The notes under the pieces were generated by a model. The model did not search any database. It worked only from the letters and a program-made list of their open reading frames with translations, and had not been told where the DNA came from. A stretch of DNA of 64,000 nucleotides from Candidatus Tenderia sp. (GTDB lineage: Bacteria > Pseudomonadota > Gammaproteobacteria > Tenderiales > Tenderiaceae), in assembly GCA_031416075.1 (NCBI GenBank), contig JANOSY010000045.1, forward strand, positions 48,131-112,130, in the 5' to 3' direction. Shown here piece by piece: positions 56,131 to 60,690 of the stretch. Both the position numbers and the translations under genes were made by a program. Every line of letters starts with the position of its first letter. The first letter of the stretch is position 1.

Positions 56131-57780
56131 TTATTGAATATAACGCCGTGCCACTCGACGACGTATCGCCACTGCGCTCAGCAACAGCATCCCAAACCAC
56201 CCATCCATAGCTCCACTACCACCGCCGCTGCTACTACTCACACCACCACCTGTGTCAACAGGAGTTTCTGTACTCACCGGCTTCACCGTAACATTCACCT
56301 GCGCCACCACTGGCTCGGCGTCACGCACATCAGAGACCCTATAGCTGAAGCTGTCATTACCCTGAAAGCCTTGAGGGGCTGTATAGGTGATGGTGCCATC
56401 GTCATTGAGGACTACCGTGCCCCCCTGTGTCGAGCTGCCGTCAGCACCGGCCAAATGGAGCACATCGTTATCGGGATCGGTGTCATTGGCCAGTACATGG
56501 AGGGTAATGTTTTCGCCGGGTATCAGCTTCACCATGTCATCCGCAGGGGTGGGCGCACTGTTGGCAGTCCTGAAAACAGAAACCTTACCGCCATTATCAG
56601 CAGGTGCCGCTGCATAGAGATAGGCGCCGTTAGGGGTTGGTGTCATTGATAACACACCGTTGCTGCTCGTACTCTGCACCTCAATGAACTTAAGTTTACG
56701 GCTATCCGGTTCGGTACTGAATATGGCGATAGCGCTCTGCGTTCCACTGGCCCCGAAGCTGACATAGACTCGCGAACCGTTGGGGCTGGCTATGACGGAG
56801 GTGATGGCATTGAATTGAGGCACCTTGGCCTGCGTCCAGGCTTCGAGGTAGCTCACCTTGCAGTTATCGGAATTACGTTTAAAGACCGCCAGGGCGTTGT
56901 CGGTTGTGCCTGCCACATAGAGATTGATGCCATCAGGACTCAATGCTACCGAGCTTGCTCCGGATAATCCTGTAACACCCTTACTTGGATCATTGCGCAA
57001 GGCTTCGACAAAACTCAGACGGCCACTGCTATCACGGCTGAAGACAGCGACTGCATTGTCAACAGCGCCCGCCACAAAAAGACATTTTCCATCGGGTGTG
57101 AGGGCCAGACCAGCACTGTCTGCCAGGCCGTCAACACCACTCTTTGTCTCCAGAGGGGTCAGCTCTCCCGTTGTGGTGTCGCGACCAAACACAGAGACCG
57201 AGTTTTTGCCAGAGAAGTAGAGACTCTTACCATCACTGCTGATGGCAAGGTCGCTTGCCTTATCCGGCGCTTCATAGCTTTTCTTGAAGGTTAATTCGCC
57301 ACTGCCTGGATCGCGGACATAGAGCGCCACCTTAGGCTTTTCTTTGTTATCCAGCGGTGATAAGGCCACATAGAGATTGGCACCATCAGCAGTGACAATC
57401 ACTTTTAATGGCAGATGACTGCTGCCAAGATCATCAGCGGCAAGATGAAAGCCTATATAAGAGGGCTGACCATTGGTATCACGCTTGAACAACCCGATTC
57501 CGGCATCAGTCGCCGCTGCCACATAGATGTGTCTGTTATCAGGCGAAATGGCTAGATTGCTGGCACCACCAAGACCAATAGGGCTATCGACGACGTTGCT
57601 GTAGGTTTTTTTAAATTCAAGGTCGCCAGCCTGAACCGCCGTTATGCCTGAAACAGACAGCAGCATCACCCCAGCCAGGGGGCGCAACAGAGAAACGGGA
57701 TTCGATCCCCTCCACATACCATTCAGCGGCGCGCGATACATTTCAGGCAGACTCCTTGAAGCAACGTCAGGGAGATGCAC
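56131..57780 (-). CDS. Lactonase-type beta-propeller + Ig-like domain + GlyGly-CTERM surface protein
   Basis: Repeated (I/L)SPDG..LYVA blades, VLANDTDPDND...GTITYT...DSFSYRVSD, C-terminal SSGGGSGAM-hydrophobic-RRR. Confidence 0.85.
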   Translation of the reverse strand: MHLPDVASRSLPEMYRAPLNGMWRGSNPVSLLRPLAGVMLLSVSGITAVQAGDLEFKKTYSNVVDSPIGLGGASNLAISPDNRHIYVAAATDAGIGLFKRDTNGQPSYIGFHLAADDLGSSHLPLKVIVTADGANLYVALSPLDNKEKPKVALYVRDPGSGELTFKKSYEAPDKASDLAISSDGKSLYFSGKNSVSVFGRDTTTGELTPLETKSGVDGLADSAGLALTPDGKCLFVAGAVDNAVAVFSRDSSGRLSFVEALRNDPSKGVTGLSGASSVALSPDGINLYVAGTTDNALAVFKRNSDNCKVSYLEAWTQAKVPQFNAITSVIASPNGSRVYVSFGASGTQSAIAIFSTEPDSRKLKFIEVQSTSSNGVLSMTPTPNGAYLYAAAPADNGGKVSVFRTANSAPTPADDMVKLIPGENITLHVLANDTDPDNDVLHLAGADGSSTQGGTVVLNDDGTITYTAPQGFQGNDSFSYRVSDVRDAEPVVAQVNVTVKPVSTETPVDTGGGVSSSSGGGSGAMDGWFGMLLLSAVAIRRRVARRYIQ

Positions 57781-57809
57781 AACGCACTCCCCTTATTATG
57801 AATTCGCAA

Positions 57810-57843
57810 ATTTTATGCTGCGTAGATTACAGCCGTATGAACA
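57810..57843 (-). promoter_or_regulatory. Pho-box-like repeat plus -10 upstream of GlyGly-CTERM gene
   Basis: Minus strand TGTTCAT-ACGG-CTGTAAT-N10-TAAAAT. Confidence 0.7.
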
Positions 57844-57904
57844 GCCGCTAGAGAAGCATAGAAGTTAAATTACCCCCGGCATACATGGACGCCCACTTTT
57901 TGCC

Positions 57905-58160
57905 AGGCTTTCAATTGATGATTCTGAGTAGGTAAAGATTGCAGCCATACATCCGGACTTTCGATGAAGCTTTCGCTCCTGTCCCTGATGGAATCCGCTG
58001 ATCGAGTCCTCAACAAAGCCACGCACTTTATGTGCGACGCCGGGGACAGGTTTGCTCGATCAAGGTCTGACCAGTCTCGCCATCATCTCATGATTGCCTG
58101 TGCAATCGGTGGTGCTCCGCCTTCAACGCGTTGTATTCCGGTTTTACTCTACTGCTCTGA
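57905..58160 (-). ncRNA. Predicted bridge/seekRNA region of the IS1111 element (boundaries approximate)
   Basis: Stem GATCGAG/CTCGATC encloses CCCCGGC and GGCTTTG (match to target) around hairpin CGCAC-ATAAA-GTGCG; ATGTAT and CCATCA resemble the donor junction. Confidence 0.6.
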
Positions 58161-58166
58161 TTACAC

Positions 58167-59205
58167 TCAGGCAGCCGTAGCTGTCTGGGCATAATCAGAT
58201 TGGAATATCCTCTCCTTTGCCAGGAGTGCCCAGACAATTCGGGCATTTTTGTTCGCCAGGGCAACAGCGGCTACATTCTTGTTGCGCCGTGCCATGAATG
58301 AGCTTTCTCAACCAGCTGTCCGGTGCCGCTTTTTTCTCCGCAAGCCGGGTCACGGCTCGTGCTCCGTGAATCAACAAGGTGCGTAGGTAGGTATCTCCGC
58401 GTTTGCTGATGCCAAGTAATCTCTGCTTGCCGCCGCTTGAACACTGCCTGGGAACCAGCCCCATCCACGCCGCCATCTGACGACCATTCTTGAACTCGCT
58501 GGCATCACCCACAGTCGCCACGAGGGCGCTGGCCGTGATCGGACCGATCTCAGGAATATCCGCCAGCTTCATACTGGCAACGTTGTTGGTATGCCACGTC
58601 CGTATCTGCGCTTCCAACTCTTTGGCCTGGCGATCCATCACTTTCAGGTTGTCGGCCAACCGTTCGAGCAGTCTCCGCATCGTATCAGGCATTCCATTCT
58701 CGGCATCTTCCAGTATCTCCGGTATGCGCTTGGCGATGACATCTACCCTTTTCGGAATAATTATGCCGAACTCAGAAAGTAGCCCCCTAATCTGGTTGCC
58801 TTGTGCCGTTCGTGCCTTGACGAAACCCTGCCTCGCCCGATGCACTGAAAGGATGGCTTCTTGCTCGACATTTTTTATCGGCACAAAGCGCATCGTGGGG
58901 CGACCCATGGCTTCGCAAATCGCTTCTGCATTCGCTACGTCATTCTTGTTTGTCTTCACATACGGTTTCACGAACCGCGGCACCATCAACTTGGCCGTGT
59001 ACCCATACTCGCCAAGCTTCCTCGTCCAGTGATGCGCACTGCCACAGTGCTTCCATGCCTATCAAACAGGGTTCCAGATTCGCAAAAAATTTCCCCTATC
59101 TTTCCGTTTCAACGGTTTCCGCAGCACAGTGTTGCCCTGCTCATCCACGCCATGAAACTGAAATACTTCCTTTGCCAAGTCGATGCCAATTGTCATGATT
59201 TTCAT
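58167..59205 (-). pseudogene. IS110-family recombinase, at least three frameshifts
   Basis: MKIMTIGIDLAKEVFQFHG / GMEA-CGSAHHW / KNDVANAEAICEA / SSGG..ISKRGD / RRNKNVA are in different frames. Confidence 0.88.
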
Positions 59206-59364
59206 TTCAGACACTCCTCTCTGTATAGTGGTCATTACTGCAACCGCTACTTTGGCACTCTGATGCCGTATCGGAAAGTGGGCGTCCATACCATTAAAGC
59301 CGGGGGCTTATTGGGTGAGCGCCTCAAAGGCGCCATTAAACCGTGAACCGCCCAAGGCGGTTGA

Positions 59365-59796
59365 TCATACTCCGAGCTTCATCTGGTCATAGCACTCATC
59401 TTCCGACTCTTGGTTCTTGATGTAGGCTCTTACCATCGCCTCATCAAGCCCAAATGTCGAAACAAAGTAGCCACTCGCCCAGAAATTTTCGCCTGTAAAA
59501 TTTCTTTCACGGCCACCAAACTTACGAGCCACCTGAATGGCACTCTTGCCTTTGATAAACCCCACCATGTTCGACACCGCATACTTCGGTGGAATACTCA
59601 GACACATATGGACATGATCACCCATCAGGTGACCCTCAACAATCGTACACTTTTTGTGTTTTGCCAGCTCATGGAATATCTCTCCAAAATGCCGCTTCAA
59701 CACTCCAAAAATACGCTTCTTTCGTCGTTTGGGGATAAACACCACATGGTATTTACAATCCCAACGCGTATGACTCAGACTTTGATACTCTTTCAT
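59365..59796 (-). CDS. tnpA: IS200/IS605 TnpA (Y1 HUH transposase)
   Basis: CKYHVVFIPK, DHVHM (HUH), IKGKSA, FWASGYFVST, YIKNQ; start codon sequestered in hairpin 59793-59839. Confidence 0.93.
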   Translation of the reverse strand: MKEYQSLSHTRWDCKYHVVFIPKRRKKRIFGVLKRHFGEIFHELAKHKKCTIVEGHLMGDHVHMCLSIPPKYAVSNMVGFIKGKSAIQVARKFGGRERNFTGENFWASGYFVSTFGLDEAMVRAYIKNQESEDECYDQMKLGV

Positions 59797-59923
59797 TGTG
59801 AACCTCGTTCTCTTGGCAGAGACCCCAGATTCACAATGACCGCCGTATAGGTCAAACCTAGGTGAGTCCCCCGGCAGAGCCGGGGGTTTACCTCACTTAA
59901 TTAATGTTCAACATCCAGCCCTT

Positions 59924-59968
59924 TTGTCACAAAAATGTAATCGCTGTGTAACCTTCATTGGTTCTAAT
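59924..59968 (+). promoter_or_regulatory. Triple Pho-box-like repeat plus -10 upstream of phoB paralog (autoregulation)
   Basis: TTGTCAC-AAAA-ATGTAAT-CGCT-GTGTAAC-N10-TCTAAT. Confidence 0.75.
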
Positions 59969-60000
59969 CTGCGCTCACTTTCCAGCAAAGAATGATGTAT

Positions 60001-60690
60001 ATGGCAGAGAGAATCTTGGTTGTTGAGGATGAAGCTGCAATCCGCGAGATGTTGTCAATGACATTGACCCGTGCCGGCTTCGAAATAATGGTCGTCGGCA
60101 GTGTGTCGCAGGCGCGTGGACTGATCATGGACCGGCGTCCCAATCTAATTCTTCTCGACTGGATGCTGCCGGATACCAGCGGGCTGGAGTATGCACGCAT
60201 CCTCAAGAAGGATGCCATGACCCGTGAGATACCGATCATCATGGTCACTGCACGTGGCGATGAGGGCGACAGGGTGAAGGGGCTGGAGGTGGGCGCGGAT
60301 GATTACGTCATCAAACCGTTCTCATCCAAGGAGCTGGTGGCCCGCATCAAGACAGTATTGCGCCGTGGCGCACCGCCAGGTGACAACCATATCATTCAGG
60401 TAGATGGTATGCGTGTCGATCTCGCCGGACATCGTGCAATGATCAACAACACAATTCTCGATCTCGGCCCCACCGAGTTCCGCCTGCTACACTTCTTCAT
60501 CACCCATCCCGACCGTGTTTATAGCCGTAGCCAACTGCTTGATCAGATCTGGGGTGGGTCGATCTGCATTGGAGAGCGCGCGGTAGATGTTCACATTAGG
60601 CGGCTGCGTCAGGCGCTCGCTACGCACAACCATGATCAGTATGTGCAGACGGTGCGCGGCACGGGGTATCGCTTCTCAATGCTGGTCTGA
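60001..60690 (+). CDS. phoB: PhoB-like response regulator, no adjacent phoR
   Basis: [67 protein letters not shown]. Confidence 0.88.
   Translation: [229 protein letters not shown]

Follow-up and report, generated by a model that had tools for sequence, protein, structure and literature searches.

The RNA-guided mechanism of insertion sequences (IS) of the IS110 family and its IS1111 group was published in 2024, and these elements are known to target repeated extragenic palindromes (REP), attC sites and the ends of Tn21-family transposons. The core of IS621 is a CT dinucleotide. The bridge RNA of this element is reportedly also the subject of Hiraizumi et al. 2024 (PMC11208158). In the case of an IS1111-family element aimed at Tn21 ends, the host is said to belong to the Tn3 family and to have duplex inverted repeats and a transposase of the DDE type. 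Here we describe a stretch of 64,000 nucleotides from Candidatus Tenderia sp. (contig JANOSY010000045.1 of assembly GCA_031416075.1, positions 48,131 to 112,130; hereafter the window), in which a decayed IS1111-group element lies inside an IS200 element and separates the two arms of its right-end hairpin. Very probably this copy, now dead, was inserted by RNA-guided recombination into the loop of that hairpin, and its 3′ non-coding region still carries guides that correspond to the target (Table 1).

Elements of the IS1111 family are marked by subterminal inverted repeats, by extensions of 7 nucleotides (nt) on the left and 3 nt on the right, and by a 3′ non-coding region (Siddiquee et al. 2024, PMC11187229). 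According to that source, the seekRNA elements ISEc11, ISPa11, ISKpn4 and ISPst6 combine such repeats and extensions with a non-coding region downstream of the transposase gene, two short overlapping target matches and no target duplication, and the window element resembles them in all these respects. It differs from them in being a pseudogene copy and in its target, theirs being a short linear site, attC or REP as far as described there, and its own the loop and arms of an IS200 end hairpin. Its largest reading frame, a piece of 264 amino acids, matched PF01548 (E 1.1e-7) and PF02371 (E 9.9e-25) in Pfam; the N-terminal DEDD (RuvC-like) domain of the IS110 family and the C-terminal PF02371 domain are thus both present. 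Read on the element's own strand, TAATGGT is followed by ATGGACGCCCACTTT, and at the far end the inverse of the same 15-mer is followed by GTA, the 15-bp subterminal repeat being perfect. Position 7 of the left end (59290) is T in the window and A in 20 of 21 other TAATGG-type rows. The 3′ non-coding region extends over 285 nt from the stop at 58167 to the element end at 57882. Ends of the form TAATGG...CATGTA or CAATGG...CATGTA also delimit another 36 elements, which come from 35 of the 80 related loci fetched from public genomes, so that the boundaries drawn in an earlier, sequence-only reading of this DNA were correct, as was its assignment of the element. The segment is an IS1111-group element of the IS110 family. 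It is single-copy in the window genome, where a genome search found only three distant IS110-family fragments besides, and when plasmids were searched for a close relative bearing a name, nothing better came up than an 'IS110 family transposase' of at most 72% identity, in Aeromonas salmonicida.

The host element belongs to the IS200 group of the IS200/IS605 family, as had also been recognized from sequence. Its sole gene encodes a Y1 HUH transposase (Y1_Tnp, E 3e-35), and it carries twin hairpins near its two ends. The divergence of the genome copies places the left end 18 nt beyond its hairpin and the right end 10-11 nt beyond its own, an asymmetric layout like that of IS608, whose transposase-binding palindromes lie 19 and 10 nt from the ends (PMC3201880). 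By analogy with IS608 in the same source, the IS200 transposase is expected to bind these hairpins as single-stranded DNA. Direct reading bore out the earlier claim that removal of 57882-59296 rebuilds a twin of the left-end hairpin at 59868-59886. The restored form is CCCCCGGC-AAA-GCCGGGGG, with a loop of 3 nt, and it occurs naturally, as the uninterrupted right-end hairpin of other IS200 copies of the same genome. In addition, contigs of four metagenome runs (X1 to X4, all DNA contigs) that match the window from 59296 onward read ...CCCCCGGC ahead of it, which is the unsplit form. There is no target duplication beyond the one base shared with the element.

The 3′ non-coding region was examined in an alignment of the last ~230 nt of 35 distinct elements (alignment A1), for which RNAalifold and a pair count on a hand-written structure agreed. 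The structure has 41 pairs, of which 17 show changes on both sides, and 95.8% of the cells are paired; none of 500 shuffles scored as high, and sliding the partners reduced the paired fraction to 29-41%. The basal stem of the target-binding loop has 8 bp, which in the window are 58055-58061/58000-58006 plus one more pair, and six of the eight show 6-14 compensatory changes each. Above this stem come a 3-bp inner stem and a distal hairpin, and the two unpaired stretches between these are the most variable part of the alignment. The 5′ stretch holds CCCCGGC (58039-58045, minus strand), which pairs with GCCGGGG in the top strand of the right flank; the next guide base, G, faces the crossover T in the window, and in the closest relative, L002, an A faces this T and the match reaches 9 nt. 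The 3′ stretch holds GGCUUUG (58014-58020, minus strand), identical to the left flank plus TG, and the intact left-end hairpin of the same IS200 copy has one mismatch to it. In the seekRNAs of the IS1111 family the complement of the top strand likewise lies 5′ of the complement of the bottom strand, and the two overlap in the target (PMC11187229).

All stems and motifs named by the sequence-only reading were present on the minus strand where it had placed them (58055-58061/58000-58006, 58039-58045, 58014-58020, 57947-57952 and 57986-57991). It had further proposed that CCCCGGC and GGCTTTG are guides for the target CCCCCGGCTT^TGCCGGGGG, and had advised folding and covariation as a check. Both 7-mers proved to lie on the unpaired sides of an internal loop in the covarying structure, and the bases at these positions track the flanks in the relatives. 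We scored the longest exact match in the 31 elements that have 10 nt or more of flank on each side, taking the 5′ stretch against the reverse complement of the right flank and the 3′ stretch against the left flank plus two bases. The two matches of an element to its own flanks summed to 13.45 nt on average (range 9-16; 7+7 in the window), compared to 6.19 nt for the flanks of other elements in 888 cross pairings. Two cross pairings scored 15-16, which probably reflects near-identical targets passing the filter. Two 7-mers within 285 nt would be weak evidence alone, and the target arms are GC-rich and self-complementary, so one could suppose that the hairpin insertion and the two matches coincide by accident and that the non-coding region has no role in the choice of site. 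This is hardly credible in view of the gap between own and cross matching, the covariation of the structure, and the recovery of the same junction by a search with the guides alone.

The second loop appears to read the element's own ends. Its 5′ guide AUUCCAU (57988-57994) is the complement of the consensus left-end bases 3-9, and its 3′ guide AUGUAU (57947-57952) corresponds to the final 5 bases of the right end followed by the base with which the left end begins; the matches are exact in 31 and 34 of the 35 elements, respectively, and in L048 the right end and the donor guide have both changed. Of the two motifs that had been likened to the circle junction, ATGTAT is retained, and CCATCA is better replaced by AUUCCAU. 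The inner donor helix GGAC/GUCC shows one compensatory type, in six sequences; an additional basal helix AGC/GCU was considered for this loop and dropped, as it is broken by C-type elements. The target loop lies within helix 1, which places the donor bases in a multi-loop. Durrant et al. 2024 (PMC11208160) remark on this arrangement for IS1111 elements, in which the right end contains the RNA and the donor-binding bases are often part of a multi-loop. From what that source describes, the predicted window RNA is like the IS621 bridge RNA in combining target and donor loops on one molecule, each reading both strands around a shared core, but the IS621 RNA lies upstream of the gene and that of the window downstream. 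The two also differ at the core. In 33 of 34 cases the element and its right flank begin with the same base (20 times T and 13 times C, with one exception), and this identity points to a single pyrimidine shared by donor and target at the exchange point. When the ends are abutted they read TA/TAAT, which in the window lies 17 nt past a CTGGCA; most relatives have TTGGCA in its place. Such a TATAAT box with a TTGGCA-like box fits the circle-junction promoter described for the IS1111 family (PMC11187229), and the joined ends may have been active as a promoter.

The same site recurs in relatives. Of the 36 genome-derived relatives, three (L001, L002 and L013) lie in the same hairpin type, and the others have quite different flanks. 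A metagenome scan, in which the query consisted only of the guide pair with its intervening hairpin, yielded 27 contigs; L084 and L102, which show neither element ends nor a transposase, were set aside as chance matches. Half hairpins were found at 19 of 21 visible right junctions, which begin with TGCCGGGG or a close variant (one mismatch in L081, four extra bases in L103), and at all 14 visible left junctions, whose last bases are ..CCGGCTT or ..CCGGCTC. Elements that carry these guides thus lie again and again in this hairpin; insertion of other copies into unrelated sequences would have spoken against the earlier proposal. A tnpA gene of IS200 stands just upstream and co-oriented in the window, L083, L089, L092 (where it is frameshifted), L094 and L096, and in L098 it starts just downstream of a left-end insertion; all tnpA-linked insertions share the orientation of tnpA. 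Judging from the similarity of their flanks, L001 and L081 are also in left-end hairpins. Among the insertions with at least 440 nt of left flank, 6 of 10 have tnpA alongside. The question raised earlier, whether the flanks are always IS200 hairpins, can thus be answered in part: they are mostly half hairpins, but a complete IS200 is not always present. In the window genome the 13-mer GGCTTTGCCGGGG, which spans both guides, occurs 13 times in 3.49 Mb, where 0.1 would be expected; eight of these sites belong to hairpins of the right-end type and four to hairpins of the left-end type, the remaining one lies elsewhere, and all are unoccupied.

These data also bear on a broader view of the target, namely that the guides aim at GC-rich hairpin repeats in general (solo hairpins, REP-like units, miniature elements derived from IS200) and that IS200 is one carrier among others. 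L002, L095 and L107 have only a short tail resembling the right end, and tnpA is absent from the 1.4-3.5 kb upstream of them; the hairpins of L087 and L013 lack a recognisable IS200 context. REPs are said to resemble the subterminal hairpins of IS200/IS605 elements (PMC3333891), and REP targeting is known for IS110-family elements (Tobes and Pareja 2006, PMC1525189). On the other hand, 12 of the 13 exact sites of the window genome are in IS200 ends, tnpA adjoins 6 of the 10 insertions with enough left flank, and the sites without tnpA still have tails like the IS200 right end and look like IS200 remnants. We regard the broader target as possible, though clearly the less probable of the two.

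Insertion into the ends of IS200 by RNA guidance probably proceeded as follows. The 3′ non-coding region would encode a bridge or seek RNA of ~170 nt with two loops. In the target loop, CCCCGGC would pair with the right half of the site in its top strand (T-GCCGGGG), and GGCUUUG with the bottom strand over the left half and the crossover (GGCTT-T-G). Because the arms of the hairpin are palindromic, the TTT loop alone would set the orientation of insertion, which is that of IS200 tnpA. In the donor loop, AUUCCAU and AUGUAU would read the abutted ends of the excised circle, and exchange would take place at one pyrimidine common to both partners, with which the element and the right flank each begin; the joining of the ends would at the same time create the TATAAT box, ~17 nt after the TTGGCA-like box. 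Specificity would be a property of whole lineages, for which the end hairpins of IS200-type elements offer a repeated and harmless landing site. The insert parts the two arms presumed to be bound by the IS200 transposase, and therefore an occupied IS200 copy should no longer move. As had been suggested from the sequence, the insertion may thus both provide a safe site for the element and immobilise its host.

Several observations weigh against this account. The window copy cannot act, and anything said on activity rests on its relatives. A search of 57000-60600 against Rfam 15 with E up to 1 gave no match, so that no curated family covers the guide RNA, and the run search found no RNA run that contains the stretch, which leaves the transcript as a prediction. 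Covariation in the donor loop is mostly a single split between two clades, to which L048 adds, and the 5′ donor match is broken in L029, L048 and L075. At the target, the right junctions of L090 and L106 are not hairpins, and the guides of L013 fit their own site poorly (5+4 nt). L002, L095 and L107 keep only the right-end-like tail (nhmmer E 1e-3, 7e-3 and 5e-6), and L087 has neither tail nor tnpA. Moreover, the metagenome set was chosen by the guide pair, and it tests the site and not the frequency of such elements.

A quick IQ-TREE search was run on 98 transposase segments, of which 16 were labelled hairpin, 77 other and 5 too short. The hairpin label fell on a clade of five including the window (SH-aLRT 95), a clade of seven (98) and four more rows elsewhere, and the starred branches force at least three changes of the label. 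This is a hint of repeated gain or loss of hairpin targeting, from a quick search on a sample biased by metagenome rows that were chosen by their guides. Another reading is that the splitting of the hairpin is itself a selected function and the element or its host gains by disabling IS200, as a parasite or a controller. Left-end and right-end hairpins, the presumed binding sites of the transposase, are both hit, and the guide pair occurs in at least three places of the quick tree among elements with other targets. However, a repeated, non-essential and horizontally spreading site explains the pattern without selection for damage, the window genome keeps 12 empty sites and many IS200 copies beside its dead IS1111 copy, and the same sampling bias applies to the tree; selection for disabling IS200 therefore seems to us quite unlikely. 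A wider idea, which we consider speculative and rather improbable, is that several IS1111 lineages are hyperparasites of IS200-type transposons, their bridge RNAs having been programmed at least three times on the tree for the transposase-bound hairpin. They would spread with IS200, disable the copies they enter and limit the IS200 load, and this habit would be the origin of the well-known REP targeting by IS110/IS1111 elements, given the resemblance of REPs to the end hairpins of IS200/IS605.

For insertion into IS200 ends by RNA guidance, the nearest known cases differ in the nature of the target. The IS1111-family element aimed at Tn21 ends is like that of the window in choosing the functional end of another mobile element, whereas the window target is not a Tn3-family end and is the hairpin of a single-strand HUH transposon. 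The REP-targeting elements IS621, ISPa11, ISPpu9 and ISPpu10 are similar in their orientation-specific insertion into a repeated extragenic palindrome, as far as described by Tobes and Pareja 2006 (PMC1525189), but REPs are host repeats handled by a domesticated Y1 transposase, and the window palindrome is still the end of an autonomous IS200. As REPs resemble the IS200/IS605 end hairpins according to PMC3333891, the IS200 hairpin as a target is a natural neighbour of the known cases. A full-text literature search did not find an IS1111 or IS110 element aimed at IS200 ends, although supplementary target tables and the target logos for ~300 ISfinder entries in PMC11187229 may list an equivalent; within the available parts of PMC11187229, PMC11208160 and PMC1525189, 'IS200' occurs only in other contexts. 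Only the IS200-hairpin target thus appears to be unreported, and no new mechanism is revealed. We believe that the locus is useful as a natural example, since target and donor are both known and each of the four guide segments of an IS1111 bridge or seek RNA can be read against them, with covariation over dozens of relatives. It bears on the guide rules of the IS1111 branch, which is less studied than IS621, through the single shared pyrimidine and through the orientation at a palindromic site set by the loop. It also adds the ends of single-strand HUH transposons to the mobile-element landing sites of RNA-guided insertion sequences and gives a hint of a link between IS200-end and REP targeting.

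The transposase gene of the window copy is more damaged than had been noted, since the frameshift reported from the sequence is one of three (59096, 59048 and 58294). Intact relatives encode 346 amino acids. Compared to one of them, the 346-residue protein of L001, the window protein shows 77.6% identity over 303 amino acids and keeps one frame throughout, except for 16 codons at about 59096-59048 with two stops and a further shift near 58294; the total damage comes to three frameshifting indels and two in-frame stops. The best-matching DNA runs are labelled as freshwater sediment metagenomes. Runs X1 and X2 reproduce the window sequence exactly, X1 being possibly the source sample, and the breaks are therefore probably real for this population. 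Variant contigs in runs X3 and X4, from another study, have one base more after 59096, one less at 59048 and four less at 58294, together with the consensus base at 59290; the X3 contig covering the element lies entirely in repeated DNA, so it cannot be asserted to represent the same locus as the window. The window copy is a dead member of the IS1111 group, with its three frameshifting indels and a left-end base that, by its sequence, mismatches the donor guide. One dead copy beside 12 empty targets fits an inactive element.

Table 1. Coordinates of the IS200 host, the inserted IS1111-group element and the predicted guide RNA within the window.
Feature	Position	Strand	Description	Basis
Whole IS200 copy with IS1111 inside	57862-59904	-	ends approximate (few bases); ~630 bp minus the insert
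IS200 tnpA	59365-59796	-	143 amino acids, intact open reading frame; Y1_Tnp PF01797, E 3.1e-35	Pfam
Right-end hairpin, outer half	57873-57881		CCCCCGGC at 57873-57880, then A at 57881	direct reading
Right-end hairpin, inner half	59297-59307		AA + GCCGGGGG, that is AAGCCGGGGG	direct reading
Left-end hairpin, intact	59868-59886		CCCCCGGC-AGA-GCCGGGGG, upstream of tnpA	direct reading
IS1111-group insertion sequence	57882-59296	-	1415 bp, decayed copy	Pfam DEDD_Tnp_IS110 and Transposase_20; ends common to relatives
Element left end	59275-59296	-	7-nt extension TAATGGT (59290-59296) and 15-bp subterminal inverted repeat (59275-59289)
Element right end	57882-57899	-	subterminal inverted repeat (57885-57899) and 3-nt extension GTA (57882-57884)
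Transposase pseudogene	58167-59205	-	frame broken near 59096, 59048 and 58294	comparison with intact relatives
Bridge/seek RNA core (predicted)	57937-58107	-	from helix 1 5′ strand (58102-58107) to 3′ strand (57937-57942)	alignment A1
Target-binding loop (predicted)	58000-58061	-	basal stem GATCGAG/CTCGATC, 58055-58061/58000-58006
Donor-binding loop (predicted)	57947-57994	-	inner helix GGAC/GUCC, 57981-57984/57955-57958; hairpin 57966-57979

The window genome has 3.49 Mb in 95 contigs, and many IS200 copies with identical hairpin arms are found at contig ends. Over 20 contig ends, among them C3:105, C14:112, C21, C29 and C44, break off ~90-120 nt into an IS200 end. This IS200 is a multi-copy family with at least two sequence types and a main cause of the fragmentation of the assembly. 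In all four metagenome runs, the summed contig depth over 57864-57957, 58052-58145, 59274-59367 and 59838-59931 was 5-10 times that of neighbouring bins, which means that many other contigs of these communities share the right end of the element, the 5′ portion of the guide RNA and the two ends of IS200. A contig of 973 nt in run X1, which ends at 57882, has a related right end next to a non-hairpin flank, and is presumably a relative with other guides. Outside the IS200 copy, a reading frame of 549 amino acids with lactonase-type beta-propeller and cadherin-like/Big_9 domains (56131-57780, minus strand) ends adjoining it, and a gene for a PhoB-type response regulator starts at 59992.

Some of the relatives have an unusual arrangement. 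L081, L093 and L104 consist only of the 3′ part of an element, that is the guide-RNA region and the right end, with no transposase gene upstream; in L081 and L093 this part includes the hairpin half, and the similarity of L093 begins exactly where the conserved RNA does. These three are either remnants or solo guide-RNA modules. L090 has two tandem guide-RNA regions with a C-terminal transposase fragment between them, and its right flank is a piece of another IS110-family gene. In L092, a second IS110-family transposase gene begins after the 3′ part of the hairpin-targeting element, and the two elements may be nested. L013 combines window-like guides with a diverged hairpin, CCCCGGCTC and TACCGGGGG on the two sides of the insertion, and with a broken transposase gene whose longest frame has 243 amino acids. 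At the right junction of L103, an extra tgca between the element end and the hairpin half repeats the last bases of the element.

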